This document shows positions 2,791-62,643 of a stretch of 64,000 bases of DNA, piece after piece. The number at the start of each line of letters is the position of its first letter. Position 1 is the first letter of the stretch. The translations under genes and the position numbers were made by a program. The notes beneath the pieces were generated by a model. The model worked only from the letters and a program-made list of their open reading frames with translations. It was not told where the DNA came from and ran no database searches. The stretch lies in IMG/VR virus record IMGVR_UViG_648028025_000005, one strand, 5' to 3'. This DNA comes from a virus (Duplodnaviria; Heunggongvirae; Uroviricota; Caudoviricetes).

Positions 2791-3300
2791 ATGAGTAATG
2801 ACAAAAAATTGACACTGAGCGTTTACGAAAACAGTCCGCACATCTGGCGTGGCGGTTTATCTGATGTGGAGCTGGCAGAGTGGTTGATACATAAAGCTAA
2901 TGCGCTGCTCTGGCGTTTGTCAGCCAGAGAACAGCGCAAGGAAACCAGAATAAAGCTGGCTGATGCAGAAGCGTGTGCCGGGCTTATTGAGGATTATACA
3001 AATCTTGGTATTTCTTCAGCAGAGAGTGATCCCATTCAGCCTCTGAGCAGGGAGTCAATCCAGCACGCTGGTTGTATGGCACATCTTGTAACTGCTCGTC
3101 AACATGAGGTGGGTATTGGATCACTTCCGGTGGGATATTCGCTGATTCCAGAGCTGGTTGAAGCAAGAAAATCAGTTCAGAAAAAGAGAGATGACGCACT
3201 TCAATTATTGAGAGAGCACTATGGCGCGATACCAGAATGCGAACAGCATCGATACCCTGAAGGTTATGAATGGATGCAGTCTCTTTTTGAAGTTCGCTAA
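2791..3300 (+). CDS. hypothetical early protein
   Basis: ORF track 2740-3300; likely ATG at 2791 (MSNDKK) after ydaT-like stop. Confidence 0.45.
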   Translation: MSNDKKLTLSVYENSPHIWRGGLSDVELAEWLIHKANALLWRLSAREQRKETRIKLADAEACAGLIEDYTNLGISSAESDPIQPLSRESIQHAGCMAHLVTARQHEVGIGSLPVGYSLIPELVEARKSVQKKRDDALQLLREHYGAIPECEQHRYPEGYEWMQSLFEVR

Positions 3301-3406
3301 TCAATATGTCGAGACGAAGGTATGTTTCGGCGCGCAGCCAGGCTCTGTAATCCGGGAGCATTTCGGGGCTGTTACACCAGCGGTTTGTTGCTGCAACATT
3401 TAATAC

Positions 3407-4633
3407 ATGAGCCTGATAAAGGCTTTTCAAAAAATACATGTCGAACCTCCTCTGGTTCTGTCGATTGGGAACCACAGATTATATCCGGAGGAAGGTTCGG
3501 CACCAGATGAGGTAGCCATGCGTGATTACGCAAAAGTTTCTCCGCGATTCTGGCTGGGAGAAACGGGGAGAGAACTTAGAAAGGCGGGTGCAGAAGCGCA
3601 AGTTGTTGCTTTTTACCTGATGACATCCCCTCACGCAAATATGCTGGGTTTGTATTACCTGCCAGTTTTATACCTTGCTCATGAAACCGGGCTTGGTCTG
3701 GAAGGGGCTTCAAAGGGGCTTAAAAGGGCTGTTGAAGCTGGTTTTTGTAGCTATGACCATGATGCAGAGATGGTCTGGGTCCATGAAATGGCAGCCTGGC
3801 AGGTTGGGGAAACGTTGAAGCCTGGCGATAACCGTTGTGCAGGTGTCAGGAATGAGTATGCATCATTACCTGAAAACGCTTTTCTGTCAGTGTTTTACGA
3901 CAGATATAAAACGGATTTCCATCTGGATGTGAGGCGGAATAATAGCCGAAATTCGGTAAGGGGCTTCGAAGGGGCTTTTAAGGGGCTTCGAAGCCAAGAA
4001 CAGGAACAGGAGCAGGAGAAAGAACAGGAACAGGACAAAAACACTATGGTTCATGGCAAAAAAAACACCACGAACCAGGCAGGGGATGTTCAGACCGTCA
4101 ATCCTGGTCAGCCAGCAGGCACGACACCGGAAGCCGATTCAGCGTATGCGCTGAAAGCCGATTCGGGCGCTGTGCAGCAGGTGATGACCGCAAGGCCGAA
4201 GCAATCACACCAACTGCAGCAGCCTGAAGCCGATTCCGCCATTCAGCGGGAAGCCGATCGGGTAGTCCCGGAAAACACCGGGCTGTCTGTGGGACGAGTG
4301 GATTATCCGGATGTGTTCGAACAGGTCTGGCGGGAGTACCCGTTGCGTGCCGGAGCAAACCCGAAGAAATCCGCATTCAGTGCCTGGAAGGCCAGATTGC
4401 GCGAGGGGGTGCCACCAGAGACCATGCTGGATGGTGTGAGGCGTTACGCGAGATACCTGGCGGCGACCGGGAAAGCGGGAACGGAATTTGTTCAGCGAGC
4501 GACGACGTTTTTTGGGCCGGACCGGAATTTTGAAAACCCCTGGTTGCTCCCGGTAAGCGGCACGAACAACCAGCGTTGTGTGAATCATATTTCTGAACCG
4601 GATACCGAAATTCCGCCGGGATTCAGGGGGTGA
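3407..4633 (+). CDS. phage replication initiation protein (O position); start uncertain
   Basis: 408-aa ORF upstream of DnaC-like loader; internal acidic EQEQEQEKEQEQ linker; alternative start ATG 3518. Confidence 0.55.
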   Translation: MSLIKAFQKIHVEPPLVLSIGNHRLYPEEGSAPDEVAMRDYAKVSPRFWLGETGRELRKAGAEAQVVAFYLMTSPHANMLGLYYLPVLYLAHETGLGLEGASKGLKRAVEAGFCSYDHDAEMVWVHEMAAWQVGETLKPGDNRCAGVRNEYASLPENAFLSVFYDRYKTDFHLDVRRNNSRNSVRGFEGAFKGLRSQEQEQEQEKEQEQDKNTMVHGKKNTTNQAGDVQTVNPGQPAGTTPEADSAYALKADSGAVQQVMTARPKQSHQLQQPEADSAIQREADRVVPENTGLSVGRVDYPDVFEQVWREYPLRAGANPKKSAFSAWKARLREGVPPETMLDGVRRYARYLAATGKAGTEFVQRATTFFGPDRNFENPWLLPVSGTNNQRCVNHISEPDTEIPPGFRG

Positions 4634-4639
4634 TGTGGC

Positions 4640-5386
4640 ATGAAAAACATTGCGGCAGCCGGGGTTCTTGAACGTATTCGCAGACTTGCACCACCGGCGT
4701 CGGTTCCACCGTACCGGACGGTGGAGGAGTGGCGGGAATGGCAACTTGCTGAAGGACGAAAACGCAGCGAGGAGATTAACCGCCAGAATCACCAGTTGCG
4801 GGTGGAAAAAATCCTGAATCGTTCGGGCATCCAGCCTCTGCACAGCAAATGCTCGTTTGCGAATTATCAGGTGCAGAACGACGGGCAAAAATACGCGCTG
4901 AGCCAGGCCAAATCCATAGCTGACGAACTGATGACCGGGTGCACGAATTTTGTGTTCAGCGGTAAAACCGGCACCGGGAAAAATCACCTTGCAGCGGCGA
5001 TGGGTAACCGGCTGATGGCGAAGGGGCGCAGCGTGATTATCGTCACCGTGTCTGATGTCATGAGCGTGTTGCATGACAGCTACGACAACGGCAAATCCGG
5101 GGAAAAATTTTTACAGGAGCTTTGCAGTGTTGATTTGCTGGTCCTGGATGAAATAGGCGTTCAGCGGGAGACGAAAAACGAGCAGGTGGTATTACACCAG
5201 ATAATTGATCGCCGGACAGCATCACTGTGCAGTGTCGGGATGTTAACAAACCTGAATCATGCCGCAATGAGTACGCTTCTTGGTGAGAGGATTATGGACC
5301 GCATGACCATGAACGGTGGTCGATGGGTGACGTTTAACTGGGATAGCTGGCGTCCAAATGTCAGCAATATGAGGGTTGTGAAGTAA
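4640..5386 (+). CDS. DnaC/IstB-like AAA+ helicase loader
   Basis: Walker A GKTGTGKNHL and Walker B LLVLDEIG motifs; 248 aa; P position. Confidence 0.85.
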   Translation: MKNIAAAGVLERIRRLAPPASVPPYRTVEEWREWQLAEGRKRSEEINRQNHQLRVEKILNRSGIQPLHSKCSFANYQVQNDGQKYALSQAKSIADELMTGCTNFVFSGKTGTGKNHLAAAMGNRLMAKGRSVIIVTVSDVMSVLHDSYDNGKSGEKFLQELCSVDLLVLDEIGVQRETKNEQVVLHQIIDRRTASLCSVGMLTNLNHAAMSTLLGERIMDRMTMNGGRWVTFNWDSWRPNVSNMRVVK

Positions 5387-6607: not shown

Positions 6608-7197
6608 TGAAAATAACATGAAACCTTTGGATTCTGGTGTTTCAGTGGATGGGAAAAGAGCAGATACATAGAAAATGAATAGCAATAATTCACAGTCTGG
6701 ATGTTGTTTGTATGCTTATAAAATGATCCTAGTATGCATTGCCGGAGTTGAATCAGCTCCAATGAAGAAACTGAGAGGAGTATTTAGAAGATAGCTAAAT
6801 GGATGTAATTATTAGTATCTAAAAAATAGTATTTTTGAAATGGGTCTAAGAACACAACAATGTACAAATGAGAAGTTATCTTTTAATATGTTCAAAGACC
6901 CATTAGGATTGATATCAGTTATGTTAGCTAGATTGATAAAGTGATTACATATTTTCTGTTATATGCTGAAATGAATAATGCTATTCCAGAGTGCAGCAGA
7001 GAAAGTCTCCTGATGATTGAGCTCTGGAAATTGTACAATAGAAAAATTACTGTATTTTTCTGTCAAAATATTTCTCAAAACAGATTCCGCTTTGATGGCT
7101 TCAGGATATAAAGATGCGGAGTAATCAAGGCTAAGATTTCCGTTAAGCAAGCATATTGAACCGCCCCGGGTTCCTGGAGAGTGTTTTATCTGTGAAC

Positions 7198-8088
7198 TCA
7201 GGCTGCCAGATCATCGTTTCCGATGGAAGCATAATAAGCTTTTTCTGCTTCTGCCGGAGGAGTATGGCCCAGCCTTCCCAGCAATCGTCGATTGTTATAC
7301 CAGTCCACCCACGTTAGTGTGGCCAGTTCCACTTCTGCACGGTTTTTCCAGCTCTTACGGTGTATTACCTCCGCTTTGTAAAGACCATTGATGCTCTCAG
7401 CCATCGCGTTGTCATACGAGTCGCCTGTACTCCCTGTTGATGCCAGTAATCCGGCTTCTTTTAGTCGCTCCGTATAGGCCAGTGACACATACTGAGAGCC
7501 TTTATCGCTGTGATGGATGGTGCCAGACGGACGACGGGCCCACAACGCCTGCTCCAGCGCATCCAGCACGAATGTCGTTTCCATAGACGATGAGACCCGC
7601 CACCCCACGATGTATCCGGCAAACACATCAATGATAAACGCCACATAGACGAAGCCCTGCCATGTGCTGACGTAAGTAAAATCAGCCACCCACAGCTGGT
7701 CAGGTCGTTCTGCCACGAACTGACGGTTTACGCGGTCGCCTGCGGCAACGGCTTTCCGGCTGATGGTCGTACGGACCTTTTTACCCCGGAGAACACCGGC
7801 AAGTCCCATAACCGCCATGAGACGTGCCACTGTACATCTGGCCACCCTGATTCCTTCCCGTAACAACTGACGCCAGACTTTACGCACACCGTACACCTGA
7901 TGATTTTCATCGTATACGCGCTGTATCTCTCTCTTCAGCCAGTCGTCGTGCTGCGCACGGGCACTGCGTTTATCCGGATGATGTCGCTGTTGCTGACAAT
8001 GGTAATACGTTGACGGGGCAATATGCAGTTCGCTGCATACCGGTCCGACCCCGTACTGCTCACGCAGCTTATCCAGCAGTGGCATCAT
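7198..8088 (-). CDS. IS629 transposase OrfB (DDE catalytic domain)
   Basis: 296 aa, recognised IS3-family OrfB sequence ([16 protein letters not shown]...). Confidence 0.9.
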
Positions 8089-8411
8089 TTTTTCCAGAGG
8101 CGGTCGAACTCCGCCTTCGCAAAATAAGCGGAAGCCTGGCGAAGGATATCGTTACTGCGGCGCAGTTCACGATTTTCACGTTCCAGCTCTTTCAGACGCT
8201 GACGTTCAGCGCTGGTGAGCCCACCATCACCGCCCCCGGTATCCCGCTCATGCTGGCGAACCCAGACACGCAGGGTCTCCGGCGTACAGCCAATCTTTGG
8301 GGCAATGGAACAAATTGCCGCCCACTGTGAGTCATATTCATCCTGACTTTCCAGAACCATACGAATCGCCCGCTGACGGACTTCGGGGGAAAAACGAGTA
8401 TTTTTAGTCAT
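8085..8411 (-). CDS. IS629 transposase OrfA
   Basis: 108 aa HTH protein [19 protein letters not shown]...; overlaps orfB start at A-rich run (GGAAAAAATGATG). Confidence 0.9.
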
Positions 8412-9499
8412 CCTGTTTACCTCTTTCTCAGGGAGTTTAGTCTCCAGGATTTCCGGGGCGGTTCATATACTTTTAGTGTGCTTTGATTCTGATATATCAT
8501 CTTTAATTATCTTGATGATTCTTTCATTCTGCCATAGAAGTGATGGTGCAGATATATAATAATAGTTAAAGCATGAATTATTTTTTAAGCAATCAAGCAC
8601 AAAAATAGCACCTAGCGAGTGCCCCCATATACCGATTCTGGAACTGTTCGGAGCAATAGTACTAACCCATGGCATGATCTGAGTTAGTAATAATTCTCGG
8701 AAAGACTGGCTTCCTCCACCAGTAAAGTAGATCCATGCTGGTTTAGAGTTATCAACAATAGCATTTTCACCATCAGGAGTATAATCGTAAGCACGGCGAT
8801 GAATGCTAAGGTTATTCCAAGATTCATAACCAAGTGTAACTAACACTGGTGGATTGGGTAGTGCATCAATAACAGGCAGAATATCAGAAATGTAATTGTT
8901 GGCACTATTCCCATCAAGTATATAAAGAGTTGCATTATTTTTTTTAATGTTTTTTGGAGTAAAAATACATATTTTATATTTGGTGTCATGGTTAATTGAG
9001 TTAAATATGCGTGTTTGACAATGAATGTCCATATGTTTAGTCATGCGTTCTCCCCATGAGCATTAAAGGATGCTTAAGATATGCTATGTCACTGATAAAA
9101 AATTTGTTGTGTGTGTTTAGTTATTTTATCTACCTCCATTATGATTTAAGACTGATATATGTTATCAGCAAAGGTACATCGTTATTATTTTACCTGTCAA
9201 TACATTTGATATTGATTATCGTTTACATCGCTTGCTTAGGAAATTGAAGGCAGGTAACTATCATGTCAATGAACTAACCCACAGTCTAACGTACTTCTTT
9301 CCCCAATCACCAACAACCAAATTCCTGTTATCACCACTGGGATTTTGGCGCAACTTCATGGTGCAGAGGTAAATAGCATCAAGCAAAATCTCTTTTTCCG
9401 TTGTTGTCCTTATGGGACGTCTGTCTTTCTGACCGATTTCATATTGGCGAGGTAATGGGAAGTTAAGTAGAATAGCTGCGGGTGCTTGAGGCTATCTGC

Positions 9500-9648: not shown

Positions 9649-9804
9649 ATGAAGCAGCAAAAGGCGATGTTAATCGCCCTGATCGTCATCTGTTTAACCG
9701 TCATAGTGACGGCACTGGTAACGAGGAAAGACCTCTGCGAGGTACGAATCCGAACCGGCCAGACGGAGGTCGCTGTCTTCACAGCTTACGAACCTGAGGA
9801 GTAA
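9649..9804 (+). CDS. hok: Hok/Gef-family type I toxin (HokD/RelF-like, 51 aa)
   Basis: MKQQKAMLIALIVICLTVIVTALVTRKDLCEVRIRTGQTEVAVFTAYEPEE; single transmembrane helix; followed by terminator. Confidence 0.85.
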   Translation: MKQQKAMLIALIVICLTVIVTALVTRKDLCEVRIRTGQTEVAVFTAYEPEE

Positions 9805-11313: not shown

Positions 11314-11685
11314 ATGCGTATAGAGTTTGTTTTGCCTTACCCGCCGACGGTGAACACCTACTGGCGACGTCGTGGCAGCACATATTTTGTATCAAAAGCC
11401 GGTGAGCGTTATCGCCGGGCTGTGGCGCTTATTGTTCGCCAGCAGCGGCTGAAATTAAGCCTGTCCGGACGGCTGGCAATAAAAATTATTGCAGAACCAC
11501 CGGATAAGCGCCGCCGTGACCTGGACAACATTCTGAAAGCACCGCTGGATGCGCTGACGCATGCGGAAGTGCTCATTGATGACGAGCAGTTTGATGAAAT
11601 CAATATTGTGCGCGGTCAGCCTGTGCCAGGTGGACGGCTGGGCGTGAAGATTTACGAAATCAGAGGTGGTAACGATGGCGCGTGA
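11314..11685 (+). CDS. rusA: Holliday junction resolvase RusA
   Basis: 123 aa; RusA signature [15 protein letters not shown]...[13 protein letters not shown]. Confidence 0.9.
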
Positions 11686-12046
11686 TATCCAGATGGTTCT
11701 TGAGCGATGGGGGGCATGGGCAGCAAATAATCATGAAGATGTAACATGGCCCTCGATAGCTGCTGGTTTTAAAGGATTAATCCCGACTAAAGTGAAATCA
11801 CGTCCTCAGTGTTCTGATGATGACGCCATGATAATTTGTGGTTGTATGGCACGATTAAACAAGAATAATCAGTATTTGCACGATTTGTTGGTGGATTATT
11901 ACGTAGGTGGAATGACATTTATGGCTCTTGCACGTAAGCATAGATGTTCTGATGGGCTTATTGGTAAAAGGCTTTATAAAGCGGAAGGTATTATTGAAGG
12001 AATGCTTATGGCTCTGAATGTCCGGTTAGATATGGATATGCGGTAG
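11675..12046 (+). CDS. Q: late-gene antiterminator Q (phage 82 / QuuD-like)
   Basis: ATG 11675 with GAGGTGG upstream; ~123 aa; position between rusA and late region; Cys-rich segment [17 protein letters not shown]. Confidence 0.75.
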
Positions 12047-12197
12047 GGATATATAGTGATGAGGGTTATGTTTTCTGTGTTTATAATTAACATGTTTATT
12101 TTTTGATGGTCATGTATTGTGGAAGGTAGATAAAATGTTGCCTGGTGAATTGAAAATATTGATAATCAATCTTCATCATTAAATAAAAGGAGTGCTT

Positions 12198-13016
12198 ATG
12201 TGGATTGTGTTAGTACTGTCACTGTCAACTCTCAGTTGGCATAAGGTAGTGGCTTTTTCATTGTTGACGGTGTCTGTTGTCCTGGCTGTGCTTAATGATA
12301 TTATTGATTGGTCGGTGTTATTTTTTGTTGCTACAATCGTTTTTTTTATTATTTTGAAGTTCAACTGGAAATATAACGCCTGGGCTAAATCTATATATGA
12401 AGTTGGCATAGTTTTATCAGCCATAGCATTATCTTTCCATCTATGGCCAGGGTTTCACAATCCTGTAGTGCTAAATTCTGTTACTGTTGGCCCTCAGAGT
12501 ACTCCCTATACAATGTATTTTAATTTTGATAAAGCGCTGGTGCCATTTTTGTTAGTCCTGTGTACATCTTCTTTGTTTAAAAAAGAAGTAAAATCAGAAG
12601 TGTCTTTGTGGAAGTGGGGGGCTCTGTCGCTCTCTGTTCCTCTTATCCTGTTTTTGGCTGTTTTTTTTGGTGGATTAAAGCCAGAGATTCATTTTCCTGA
12701 GTGGTTGCCAGAGTTTATATTGGCTAATTTGTTTTTTGTGTCTCTGGCAGAGGAATCATTATTTAGAGGGTATATTCAATCACGGCTATCAGAAGTAACG
12801 TCTCCATTGGTTGCATTAATTGTGGCGGCTTTGTTGTTTGGTTTTTATCACTATTCAGGTGGTGCTTTACTTGTATTATTTGCCACGTTATCTGGTGTTG
12901 TGTATGGATTGTCATGGATGTGGAGTGGGCGTTTGTGGGTTGCCACCCTTTTCCATTTTGGTTTGAATCTGTGTCACTTGTTATTCTTTACCTATCCATT
13001 TTTAAAACATAATTGA
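12198..13016 (+). CDS. CPBP-family intramembrane metalloprotease (CAAX protease / Abi family)
   Basis: polytopic membrane protein with the three CPBP motifs EESLFRGY, FGFYH, HFGLN; AT-rich moron absent from prophage B. Confidence 0.75.
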   Translation: MWIVLVLSLSTLSWHKVVAFSLLTVSVVLAVLNDIIDWSVLFFVATIVFFIILKFNWKYNAWAKSIYEVGIVLSAIALSFHLWPGFHNPVVLNSVTVGPQSTPYTMYFNFDKALVPFLLVLCTSSLFKKEVKSEVSLWKWGALSLSVPLILFLAVFFGGLKPEIHFPEWLPEFILANLFFVSLAEESLFRGYIQSRLSEVTSPLVALIVAALLFGFYHYSGGALLVLFATLSGVVYGLSWMWSGRLWVATLFHFGLNLCHLLFFTYPFLKHN

Positions 13017-13302
13017 TTTTTTCTATGGTTTTAAATTTATAAGACTGAAAAATAGCAGGACGTGACATTTGCATGAAAAATATGCACGGCAAAGCATTTA
13101 CGTACGTAAAAAATCAGGTATGCTGTTAAGAGTGGTTATTTCGCCGCATAGCTTGACCCCGCCTCTGAGCGGGTTTTTTGTGCCCGCAAAGTAGCGCAGT
13201 GCGTTAAATGTGCTGGTAGTTATTAATACAGGTCTTTCAGCTTGCTGGCTTTTTCGGCAAGAGTTATTGGTGTGTCACGTTAACCGGAAAGGGTAAAAAG
13301 AC

Positions 13303-13500
13303 ATGCTGAAACAGCAGGATATGACAGAAACCGCCAGAGTTGTGTTTGATGAATTAAGCGTCACCGAACCGGCGACAGTCGGGGAGATTGCGCAGAATAC
13401 TTACCTTTCACGCGAACGCTGCCAGTTAATACTGACCCAGCTTGTTATGGCGGGTCTGGCAGACTATCAGTGCGGTTGTTACAGACGCCTTCAGTCCTGA
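13303..13500 (+). CDS. small putative DNA-binding protein upstream of AraC regulator
   Basis: 65 aa; paralog at 61318-61515 in B; followed by hairpin plus T-run. Confidence 0.5.
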   Translation: MLKQQDMTETARVVFDELSVTEPATVGEIAQNTYLSRERCQLILTQLVMAGLADYQCGCYRRLQS

Positions 13501-13637
13501 AGGCTTTTTTATTTGTGGTAAATGGGCGGCTGGTGGGTGTTAGCGGCACCTGTCAGTCCTTTGCTTATGTGTTGATGATAATTTACCTTTTGGGGCTATA
13601 ATTGAACTAACCAATTGCTAATGAAAGTAAAATTATA

Positions 13638-14351
13638 ATGGTTGTTGTCTGTTCAGTTATCATGGTTTGCTCCCCAATTAATATTTTTCTTGAAAAGGAT
13701 ACGTTGTCACTTAAGCCCGGCTCAGTCGTTCTGGCCACCAAATGCATCAGGGCGCTTTTCCTTATGCATTATGGCAAAGTTAAAATTTTCGATATAAACC
13801 ATTCCATAGTAAGTCAATATCTGGAAATTCAGCATAAGCTGACAAGAACTCATCTGACTGACGTTCCGCTTTATCTGTCACTGGAACCCAACAACCCTGC
13901 GTTGGCTGAGGCTTTAATTACCAGCCAGAGATTTTCCGGAGATACCACGGATATGTTTCTTATGATGGCATGCCTGTCGCTGTTTGAATCAGATGAACGG
14001 ATATTATTATTTTTAAGTGGATGTTTATCCAGTATAAGTGCCAAAGTCAGGGCGATAATTCAGACAGATATATCAGCAAGCTGGACGCTTGGTGCGATTG
14101 CGTTACGCCTGCATATGAGTGAGAGTTTGTTAAAGATAAAACTGAAAAATGAAGGGCACATGTTCAGTCGCTTGTTGCTGGAAGAGCGGATGCGTGTTGC
14201 TGTGAATATGTTATGTTCCCGGCATGGATATGGACAGGCTATAGCAGAAAAATGCGGTTATTCAAGCAGGTCCTACTTTATTTCTGTATTTCACCGCTAT
14301 TATGGCTTCCCGCCAGACAGATATGTATCCAGGCAAGGGCTTGATTATTGA
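13638..14351 (+). CDS. AraC-family transcriptional regulator (prophage-borne, YdeO/GadX-like)
   Basis: 237 aa; C-terminal AraC HTH (AIAEKCGYSSRSYFISVFHRYYGFPP); paralog in B at 61650-62363. Confidence 0.8.
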   Translation: MVVVCSVIMVCSPINIFLEKDTLSLKPGSVVLATKCIRALFLMHYGKVKIFDINHSIVSQYLEIQHKLTRTHLTDVPLYLSLEPNNPALAEALITSQRFSGDTTDMFLMMACLSLFESDERILLFLSGCLSSISAKVRAIIQTDISASWTLGAIALRLHMSESLLKIKLKNEGHMFSRLLLEERMRVAVNMLCSRHGYGQAIAEKCGYSSRSYFISVFHRYYGFPPDRYVSRQGLDY

Positions 14352-14379: not shown

Positions 14380-14455
14380 GGCCCTTTAGCTCAGTGGTGA
14401 GAGCGAGCGACTCATAATCGCCAGGTCGCTGGTTCAAATCCAGCAAGGGCCACCA
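14380..14455 (+). tRNA. tRNA with CAU anticodon (Ile2/Met type, ileZ-like)
   Basis: 76 nt cloverleaf read by eye; acceptor GGCCCTT/AAGGGCC; anticodon loop CT-CAT-AA; T arm GCTGG-TTCAAAT-CCAGC; CCA encoded. Confidence 0.85.
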
Positions 14456-14462
14456 TCACATA

Positions 14463-14539
14463 CCGCCATTAGCTCATCAGGAAAGAGCGCCAGCTTTCGA
14501 AGCTGGTTGCGCGGAGTTCGGGTCCCCGAAGGCGGTCCA
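14463..14539 (+). tRNA. tRNA-Arg(UCG)-like, degenerate copy
   Basis: anticodon loop TT-TCG-AA; relative to canonical B copy (62477-62553) it has an A-A acceptor mismatch, an A-C T-stem mismatch and altered T loop TTCGGGT. Confidence 0.55.
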
Positions 14540-14552
14540 TTATCTGTATCCT

Positions 14553-14629
14553 GCGTTGTTAGCTCAGCCGGACAGAGCAATTGCCTTCTAAGCAATCGGT
14601 CACTGGTTCGAATCCAGTACAACGCGCCA
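14553..14629 (+). tRNA. tRNA-Arg(UCU) (argO-like)
   Basis: 77 nt; acceptor GCGTTGT/ACAACGC; anticodon loop CT-TCT-AA; T arm ACTGG-TTCGAAT-CCAGT; CCA encoded. Confidence 0.85.
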
Positions 14630-14669: not shown

Positions 14670-14734
14670 AAATGTCTCACAATTCAGGCGGTTGACTGTT
14701 GTCTGGTTTGCGGGGAGTTTGTTAAAAGAAACTG

Positions 14735-14842
14735 GCATGGTGAATCCCCCTGTGCGGAGGGGCAATCAGCGAGTAGGTATATGGGATAATCGCGGATTCA
14801 GGTGCTGGTACTGAATTCACCGGGAGGCACCCGGCACCATGC
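14735..14842. promoter_or_regulatory. conserved ~105-bp non-coding element upstream of nanS-p (copy A)
   Basis: ~90% identical copy at 63442-63549; contains hairpin CCCCCTGTGCGGAGGGG; A copy followed by hairpins at ~14868-14920. Confidence 0.35.
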
Positions 14843-61317: not shown

Positions 61318-61515
61318 ATGCTGAAACAGCAGGATATGACCGAAACCGCCAGAGTGGTGTTTAATGAATTAAGCGTTACCGAACCGGCGACAGTCGGGGA
61401 GGTTGCGCAGAATACTTACCTTTCACGCGAACGCTGCCAGTTAATACTGACCCAGCTTGTTATGGCGGGTCTGGCAGACTATCAGTGCGGTTGTTACAGA
61501 CGCCTTCAGTCCTGA
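61318..61515 (+). CDS. small putative DNA-binding protein upstream of AraC regulator
   Basis: paralog of 13303-13500. Confidence 0.5.
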   Translation: MLKQQDMTETARVVFNELSVTEPATVGEVAQNTYLSRERCQLILTQLVMAGLADYQCGCYRRLQS

Positions 61516-61649
61516 AGGCTTTTTATTTGTGGTGAATGGGCGGCTGGTGGGGGGGCGACACCTGTCAGTCCTTTGCTTATGTGTTGATGATAATTTACCT
61601 TTTGGGGCTATAATTGAGCTAACCAATTGCTAATGAAAGTAAAATTATA

Positions 61650-62363
61650 ATGGCTGTTGTCTGTTCAGTTATCATGGTTTGCTCCCCAATTAATATTTTT
61701 CTTGAAAAGGATACGTTGTCACTTAAGCCAGGCTCAGTCGTTCTGGCCACCAAATGCATCAGGGAGCTTTTCCTTATGCATTATGGCAAAGTTAAAATTG
61801 TCGATATAAGCGAATCCGTCGTAAGTCAATATCTGGAAAGTCAGCATAAGCTGACGAGGACTCGTCTGACTGACATTCCGCTTTACCTGTTGCTGGAACC
61901 CAACAATCCTGCGTTGGCTGCGGCTTTAATTACCAGCCAGGGATTTTCCGGAGAGGCCACGGATATGTTTCTTATGATGGCCTGCCTGTCTCTGTTTGAA
62001 ACAGATGAACGGATGTCATTGTTTTTAAGTGGATGTTTATCCAGCATAAGTGCCAAAGTCAGGGCGATAATTCAGACAGATATATCAGCAAGCTGGACGC
62101 TTGGTGCGATTGCTCTACAGTTGCATATGAGTGAGAGTTTGTTAAAGACAAAACTGAAAAATGAAGGGGGCATGTTCAGTCGCTTGTTGCTGGAAGAGCG
62201 GATGCGTGTTGCTGTAAATATGTTATGTTCCCGGCATGGATATGGACAGGCTATAGCAGAAAAATGCGGTTATTCAAGCAGGTCCTACTTTATTTCTGTA
62301 TTTCACCGCTATTATGGCTTCCCGCCAGACAGATATGTATCCAGGCAAGGGCTTGATTATTGA
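61650..62363 (+). CDS. AraC-family transcriptional regulator (prophage-borne)
   Basis: 237 aa; paralog of 13638-14351. Confidence 0.8.
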   Translation: MAVVCSVIMVCSPINIFLEKDTLSLKPGSVVLATKCIRELFLMHYGKVKIVDISESVVSQYLESQHKLTRTRLTDIPLYLLLEPNNPALAAALITSQGFSGEATDMFLMMACLSLFETDERMSLFLSGCLSSISAKVRAIIQTDISASWTLGAIALQLHMSESLLKTKLKNEGGMFSRLLLEERMRVAVNMLCSRHGYGQAIAEKCGYSSRSYFISVFHRYYGFPPDRYVSRQGLDY

Positions 62364-62391: not shown

Positions 62392-62467
62392 GGCCCTTTA
62401 GCTCAGTGGTGAGAGCGAGCGACTCATAATCGCCAGGTCGCTGGTTCAAATCCAGCAAGGGCCACCA
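62392..62467 (+). tRNA. tRNA with CAU anticodon (Ile2/Met type)
   Basis: identical in sequence to 14380-14455. Confidence 0.85.
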
Positions 62468-62476
62468 TATCACATA

Positions 62477-62553
62477 CCGCCATTAGCTCATCGGGACAGA
62501 GCGCCAGCCTTCGAAGCTGGCTGCGCGGGGTTCAAGTCCCCGATGGCGGTCCA
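62477..62553 (+). tRNA. tRNA-Arg(UCG), canonical copy
   Basis: acceptor CCGCCAT/ATGGCGG fully paired; anticodon loop CT-TCG-AA; T arm CGGGG-TTCAAGT-CCCCG. Confidence 0.8.
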
Positions 62554-62566
62554 TTATCAGCATCAT

Positions 62567-62643
62567 GCGTTGTTAGCTCAGTCGGACAGAGCAATTGCCT
62601 TCTAAGCAATCGGTCAGTGGTTCGACTCCACTACAACGCGCCA
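62567..62643 (+). tRNA. tRNA-Arg(UCU)
   Basis: anticodon loop CT-TCT-AA; T arm AGTGG-TTCGACT-CCACT. Confidence 0.85.

Follow-up and report, generated by a model that had tools for sequence, protein, structure and literature searches.

We have analyzed a CPBP-family (PF02517) intramembrane protease gene carried by prophage A, one of two related prophages (A and B) in a 64,000-nucleotide (nt) stretch of Caudoviricetes DNA, IMG/VR record IMGVR_UViG_648028025_000005, hereafter referred to as the window. Our finding that this CPBP lineage is in near-constant linkage with an antiterminator Q of the QuuD/Q21 family is new. The gene itself is already known from a 2009 paper on enterohemorrhagic Escherichia coli (EHEC), where it was connected with a STAT-1 phenotype, and we consider it probable that it serves lysogenic conversion, as cargo encoding an inner-membrane CPBP protease that reaches this phenotype by an indirect route. 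The gene is present in roughly a tenth of complete E. coli genomes, chiefly O157:H7, O55:H7, O26 and O111, two genes upstream of the virulence regulator psrA, and its sole reported role, aiding EHEC in silencing interferon-gamma (IFN-gamma) signaling, has never been explained or independently confirmed.

The CPBP locus was found in 571 of 5426 complete E. coli genomes and is at least 99% identical in 546 of those, with carriers that include O157:H7, O55:H7, O26 and O111. The Q allele joined to the CPBP start is likewise present in 571 complete E. coli genomes. The next-nearest Q is quuD of DLP12 (78% nucleotide identity), and the similarity to it stops at the Q stop codon. Diverged CPBP copies from Escherichia albertii, E. 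coli and Shigella flexneri (83, 62 and 59% identity) each sit 122-143 nt after a Q of 122-124 amino acids (aa) belonging to PF06530, the Q21/Q933W family (bioRxiv 10.1101/651190), with Q identities of 94, 82 and 83%, respectively (81-94% overall); the prophages that hold these copies otherwise differ. Overall, the Q-CPBP pairing occurs in 41 of the 44 IMG/VR loci with a CPBP relative. While IMG/VR prophage contigs do contain the Q-CPBP cassette, DNA and tblastn searches recovered it from none of 50,697 deposited phage genomes, where matches were limited to a shared segment of terminator and 65-aa open reading frame (ORF), described below, and to two weak Listeria phage matches. The CPBP gene is also missing from the loci examined in K-12, UTI89 and APEC O1, and from Sakai prophage Sp6. 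Among the diverged prophage copies, the ratio of nonsynonymous to synonymous substitution rates (dN/dS) ranges from 0.12 to 0.24, and in the more diverged pairs dS is greater than 1. These values indicate that the CPBP gene is kept by purifying selection and that its pairing with Q is old, having outlasted the saturation of synonymous sites.

The Prokaryotic Genome Annotation Pipeline (PGAP) of RefSeq calls the same coding sequence (CDS) in a 100%-identical genome and names the product "CPBP family intramembrane glutamic endopeptidase" (WP_000265267.1). E. coli O26 strain RM8426 is 100% identical to the window over the 2.9 kb tested. The protein scores 70.6 bits with the Pfam profile PF02517 (Rce1-like), for which the cut-off is 22.4, at E = 1.4e-19 and over positions 3 to 92 of the 93-position profile; given this match and the low dN/dS, the ORF is not a chance one. 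The three CPBP motifs, EExxxR, FxxxH and HxxxN, were all located (Table 1), and their residues are invariant or nearly so in an alignment of 48 homologues with 48-84% identity to the window protein. A further invariant block, specific to the subfamily, spans residues 81-117 (PGFHNP...MY(F/Y)N(F/L)DKAL.PF). An AlphaFold2 model of very high confidence (predicted local distance difference test, 95.7; predicted template modeling score, 0.92) places the active-site residues within predicted helices in a polytopic context and has an alpha-helical fold like that of solved CPBP members. A profile search of Protein Data Bank (PDB) sequences with the protein returned nothing at E <= 1, and fold comparison alone gave matches. 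A sequence-only reading of the window had recognized a CPBP intramembrane protease downstream of Q, with its three motifs in a polytopic membrane setting, and the profile, motif, fold and context tests bear this out. On every feature testable in silico the protein thus falls within the CPBP family, with a predicted enzyme activity, and the pattern of conservation indicates that all three motifs are real and under selection.

The window also allows for a comparison of the CPBP locus with its counterpart in prophage B. In blastn alignments, homology between A and B is lost at 11660/60524, at the end of rusA, and regained at 13171/61186, in the T-run of a terminator. Between these breakpoints, A holds a Q of 126 aa, the CPBP gene and approximately 150 nt of non-coding DNA with a promoter-like element and a terminator stem, and B holds an unrelated Q of 180 aa and approximately 110 nt of non-coding DNA with a promoter-like region and terminator stem of its own. 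The two Q proteins can be aligned over only about 60 residues, at 29% identity, and the terminator stems differ as well (CCCGCCTCTGAGCGGG in A, CCACCGGAAGGTGG in B). Since the homology boundaries fall at the rusA end and in the terminator T-run, the exchanged unit is the whole Q module and not an insertion. It had been proposed from the sequence that an AT-rich insert between Q and the AraC block is absent from B. The region is indeed AT-rich, with a GC content of 0.34-0.41 across the CPBP ORF against 0.50-0.57 in the flanks (also given as 0.38 against about 0.53), and tblastn detected the gene neither in B nor as a second copy anywhere in the window; the notion of a simple insertion into an otherwise homologous region has to be given up, however, as Q itself was swapped too.

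Behind related Q genes, the slot occupied by the CPBP gene contains a porin gene (APEC O1), a lipocalin gene with a YbgA-family gene (strain G3), or nothing. A dispensable slot with other occupants and a deviant base composition are features of a moron, and the CPBP gene is phage cargo rather than phage machinery. It is comparable to the known lambdoid cargo of the Q-to-lysis interval (stx, nmpC porin, psrA, nanS-p) in its slot, its AT-richness and the presence of other occupants in sister phages, although it is far more tightly bound to one Q lineage than such cargo usually is. Where stx comes after the late promoter and terminator (pR'-tR'), the CPBP gene comes before the inferred pR'-tR', in what seems to be a cargo hot spot of its own, separate from that of stx. 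This gene order is a small but useful contribution to mapping where cargo is lodged in lambdoid prophages. As to the occupants themselves, the APEC O1 porin is of the OmpC/NmpC type and is encoded on the opposite strand (locus L101, 3071-4153), and the strain G3 genes are found at 3032-4708 of locus L102.

Other phages have a lambda-family Q (PF03589) and, behind it, a CPBP relative that is more distant, with 55% identity (loci L142, 1905-3834, and L147/L148, 2905-4864). In L147, Q is separated from the CPBP gene by a promoter-like TTGATT-18-TATGCT and a terminator, with the holin gene approximately 400 nt past the CPBP gene. Such loci seem to have acquired the gene independently in the same interval; judging from the gene orders, the Q-to-lysis interval has received the CPBP family at least twice, both before and after pR'-tR'.

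The non-coding DNA downstream of the CPBP gene contains a candidate pR' and tR'. The perfect palindrome TTTACGTACGTAAA begins 81 nt past the CPBP stop codon and has a single occurrence in the window, where 0.01 would be expected by chance. It is followed by a -10-like hexamer, and a conserved leader, GTTAAGAGTGGTTA..., occupies the space between this hexamer and the terminator. The palindrome occurs once in each Q-CPBP locus, 75-100 nt past the stop codon, in neighboring non-coding DNA that is otherwise unalignable. In the DLP12-type prophage of APEC O1, quuD and the opposite-strand porin gene are followed by the same palindrome, TATGCT, leader and terminator (L101, 4522-4605), approximately 130 nt before the holin gene essD. 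A Shiga toxin 2a (Stx2a) phage and an E. coli prophage with a 48-50%-identical Q have the same leader and terminator directly after Q, and in these GCGGTCCGC replaces ACGTACGT at the aligned position. The tR' stem shows compensatory changes across lineages in the alignment. A conserved promoter-proximal element that switches with the type of Q is what would be expected of a Q-binding site, and the palindrome is put forward as a testable candidate for the Q-binding site of the QuuD lineage; the literature searched contained no description of a Q-binding site or late promoter for this lineage.

The general layout of Q cassettes has been described (bioRxiv 10.1101/651190), and in Stx phages pR'-tR' is constitutive, with stx downstream of it. 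We infer that the order in prophage A is Q - CPBP - pR' (with its Q-binding element) - tR' - late region, in which the CPBP gene would be the last gene of the early-right operon and would have a promoter-like site of its own (Table 1). The E. albertii CPBP copy has the same promoter arrangement (TTGTCA-17-GATAAT); given the AT-richness of the surrounding region, the consensus match in the window is by itself weak evidence. No terminator was found between the CPBP stop codon and the inferred pR', and Rfam yielded no known RNA between Q and the 65-aa ORF. The alternative that the CPBP gene lies between pR' and tR' and is constitutively transcribed like the StxS leader was considered and rejected, because the promoter-terminator module is downstream of the CPBP gene in all Q-CPBP loci and stands directly before the holin gene in APEC O1.

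Outside of phages, the CPBP gene belongs to a family of solo, partly syntenic chromosomal genes in many Enterobacterales. Full-length homologues with approximately 45-55% identity were identified in at least 80 species of this order, in genera that include Photorhabdus, Xenorhabdus, Proteus, Morganella, Serratia, Cedecea, Enterobacter and Pantoea. None of the 80 species loci has a Q gene or the palindrome near the CPBP relative, and no conserved partner gene was found beside the chromosomal relatives. A gene for a ModF-like ATPase lies upstream in 40 of the 80 species, often together with modE. The genes downstream include gpmA, aroG and pnuC, or else gal genes, and in other species the housekeeping neighbors are different. 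An operon of modF and the chromosomal CPBP gene was considered and rejected in favor of mere synteny, as the gaps measure 186-871 nt in the 40 loci. The phage copies are AT-rich, with 36-38% GC. Full-length homologues with 49-51% identity were also encountered in two genomes labeled "Helicobacter sp." (loci L023 and L068; locus GC 0.32-0.34), which could be due to horizontal transfer or to a mislabeled or contaminated assembly.

Both lambda-Red homology arms and both reverse transcription-PCR primers of the 2009 EHEC paper match the window exactly and uniquely. The gene studied there is the same gene with the same neighbors (Q upstream; the 65-aa ORF and psrA downstream), the window copy differing in that it is found in an O26-type genome. 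In EDL933, psrA is z1789, on O-island 50. The 2009 paper reported that the CPBP gene was induced 2.7-fold with HEp-2 cells, that an EHEC mutant no longer blocked the tyrosine phosphorylation of STAT-1 induced by IFN-gamma, that complementation worked, and that expression in HB101 gave a partial effect. The product was treated as a generic, possibly released protease, and its CPBP fold, its linkage to Q and its chromosomal relatives were not recognized there. CPBP transcripts have been reported in lysogens and uninduced cultures (PMC2654852, PMC7649339).

As a lysogenic-conversion determinant, the CPBP protein would act through its Glu-Glu/His/His-Asn site in the inner membrane of the lysogen, where it would cleave a membrane-anchored or peptide substrate encoded by either the host or the prophage. 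Cleavage would alter an envelope or exported factor, and the altered factor would be the most plausible route to the lost block on STAT-1 phosphorylation. The enzyme itself would not be released, and its link to the STAT-1 phenotype, provided that this is real, would be indirect. A position as last gene of the early-right operon, together with a promoter-like site of its own, would explain the published mRNA in uninduced lysogens. With its active site intact and invariant, the protein is more likely to be a working protease than an SpdC-like pseudo-enzyme. Our analysis makes the "released protease" of 2009 unlikely and points to substrate processing inside the bacterial membrane.

Several points weigh against this interpretation. 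Protease activity or a substrate has never been demonstrated for the CPBP protein. The STAT-1 phenotype comes from one laboratory and from a marked kanamycin replacement two genes upstream of psrA, the gain of function in HB101 was only partial, and a later paper of the same group on the same phenotype makes no mention of the CPBP gene in its text. Later RNA-seq found the gene to be down-regulated, not up-regulated, in adhered cells. The promoter assignments rest on consensus matching and conservation, and the candidate pR' (TTTACG / TATGCT) agrees with the consensus at 8 of 12 positions, under the scan threshold of 9 of 12. Furthermore, the related CPBP gene is 3' of a promoter and terminator in the lineage with the lambda-family Q, so that its position relative to pR' is not fixed.

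Prophage cargo genes often encode exclusion or immunity functions, and a lysogen-protective role in bacteriocin immunity or abortive infection had been suggested from the sequence. An inner-membrane, polytopic protein with an intact active site could protect the lysogen from a bacteriocin, a membrane-acting toxin or, by exclusion or abortive infection, a superinfecting phage, and CPBP proteins of Firmicutes bacteriocin loci do give immunity or process peptides (PMC9298176). The PlnI-type, SagE, MroQ and SilX proteins of Firmicutes share family and motifs with the window protein and are membrane proteases acting on small exported peptides. The Firmicutes genes are located inside bacteriocin or quorum-sensing loci, however, and the CPBP gene has no such neighbor in the loci examined. 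In approximately 130 related loci, prophage and chromosomal, it adjoins no toxin, bacteriocin, exporter or other conserved partner, and no candidate bacteriocin came to light. The prophage copies are flanked by Q, the late promoter, psrA or late/lysis genes and the chromosomal relatives by housekeeping genes; solo and partly syntenic in whole genera, the latter look less like cognate immunity genes than like genes with a housekeeping role in the envelope. PADLOC-DB v2 contained no model matching the CPBP protein at E <= 0.1, and no phage-resistance function for PF02517 was found in the literature searched. The name "Abi" attached to PF02517 is a historical one, and no demonstration of abortive-infection activity in the family is known to underlie it. 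The protective role found no support in these comparisons, and we regard it as unlikely.

Also unlikely, in our judgment, is a non-catalytic scaffold or regulator in the membrane that modulates a bound partner, such as a sensor kinase or cell-wall hydrolase, in the manner of SpdC and Abx1, and regulates virulence indirectly. SpdC/LyrA of Staphylococcus aureus (6U0O, in complex with SagB) is the best structural match to the CPBP protein, and NCBI names several CPBP relatives "lysostaphin resistance A-like". The catalytic motifs are missing from SpdC, whose role is that of a partner or scaffold (PMC9298176), whereas the window protein keeps all of them, with E185, E186, R190, H218 and H253 invariant and N257 at 90% or more. 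Such an invariant active-site pattern among homologues with 48-84% identity suggests that catalysis is under selection. The other solved relative, the type II CAAX prenyl endopeptidase Rce1 of Methanococcus maripaludis (4CAD), differs from the CPBP protein, which has no sequence match to any PDB chain and possesses extra N-terminal helices as well as the family-specific invariant loop 81-117. To our knowledge, no prenylated CAAX substrates are to be expected in E. coli. That the CPBP protein is released or secreted and acts directly on host epithelial cells was discussed by the 2009 authors and could draw on the partial effect in HB101. This is highly improbable for a protein made up of membrane helices and a short loop domain without a soluble protease domain, and both of its solved structural counterparts (SpdC and Rce1) are integral membrane proteins.

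The constant location of the gene could instead point to the lytic cycle, in which the protein, co-expressed with Q, would act at induction on lysis timing, envelope remodeling or a holin/antiholin-like target. Whether Q belongs to PF06530 or to the unrelated PF03589, the CPBP gene is always found in the stretch that separates Q from the lysis genes; in the PF03589 lineage it comes after promoter and terminator and approximately 400 nt before the holin gene, and the association with Q outlasts synonymous-site saturation. However, the Q-to-lysis interval is a classic cargo hot spot (psrA, tRNA genes and the SASA esterase gene, with porin or lipocalin in sister lineages), phages with related Q proteins do without the CPBP gene, its mRNA was detected in uninduced cultures, and the family is mainly non-phage and chromosomal. 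A lytic function is therefore quite unlikely. There is a slim but real chance that the CPBP gene is a functional companion of the late-gene switch and not accidental cargo, considering that related copies are fixed behind Q in two unrelated Q families and that the PF06530 pairing was kept past synonymous saturation. As such, it might target a membrane protein of host or phage for cleavage once the early-right or late operon is switched on, with superinfection exclusion, control of lysis timing or maturation of an exported factor that would also explain the EHEC STAT-1 phenotype as possible roles.

Table 1. Positions in the window of the Q-CPBP locus of prophage A, its candidate regulatory elements and the genes that follow
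Feature	Position	Strand	Details
Antiterminator Q, QuuD-like	11675-12046	+	Pfam PF06530, E = 4.9e-52; PGAP CDS; ORF extends to GTG at 11666
Candidate sigma-70 promoter of CPBP gene (inferred)	12138-12166	+	TTGCCT-17 nt-GATAAT, 31 nt 5' of ATG; consensus scan
CPBP ORF	12198-13016	+	Single ORF, ATG start, 272 aa; Shine-Dalgarno sequence AAGGAG at 12187-12192
Motif 1, EESLFR	aa 185-190, nt 12750-12767	+	EExxxR; E185, E186 and R190 invariant
Motif 2, FGFYH	aa 214-218, nt 12837-12851	+	FxxxH; F214 and H218 invariant
Motif 3, HFGLN	aa 253-257, nt 12954-12968	+	HxxxN; H253 invariant, N257 at least 90%
Palindrome TTTACGTACGTAAA and -10-like TATGCT	13097-13110, 13119-13124	+	Perfect 14 bp, 8-nt spacer; read as pR' with Q-binding element
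Intrinsic terminator, candidate tR'	13158-13179	+	CCCGCCTCTGAGCGGG then T6; A/B homology resumes within T-run
65-aa ORF, PHROG 331	13303-13500 (second copy 61318-61515)		Just 3' of terminator
AraC-type regulator genes, YdeO/GadX-like	13638-14351 and 61650-62363		

The genes around the CPBP locus are arranged in the order DUF968 gene, rusA, Q, CPBP gene, 65-aa ORF, AraC-type gene, three tRNA genes, SASA esterase gene and lysis genes. The 65-aa ORF has a weak TrmB-like winged-helix match (E = 0.003); it is conserved behind at least four types of Q (A, B, UTI89 and Stx2a EH2201) and frameshifted in one O157:H7 strain. By position and homology, the first of the two AraC-type genes is of the PsrA type (z1789) and the second of the PsrB type. 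The best promoter match of each AraC region precedes the gene (ATGATA-16-TATAAT at 13575-13602 and 61587-61614). Each prophage has three tRNA genes (14380-14629 and 62392-62643), the first of which is Met (CAT) according to ARAGORN and Ile in RefSeq, the other two being Arg (TCG) and Arg (TCT). Between the tRNA cluster and the SASA esterase gene (14706-14800, + strand), Rfam places a match to the small RNA STnc100 (RF02076); with 52 bits it passes the gathering score of 47, and it runs into the end of the searched stretch. Upstream of the Q module, an alpha/beta-hydrolase (esterase-like) gene at approximately 6959-9044 (- strand) is interrupted by the IS3-family element IS1203 in the identical RefSeq genome and is uninterrupted in an O157:H7 strain. 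A RelE/RelB toxin-antitoxin pair (approximately 1080-1560, - strand) and a HokD-type toxin gene (9649-9804, + strand) are annotated for prophage A in that RefSeq genome as well.
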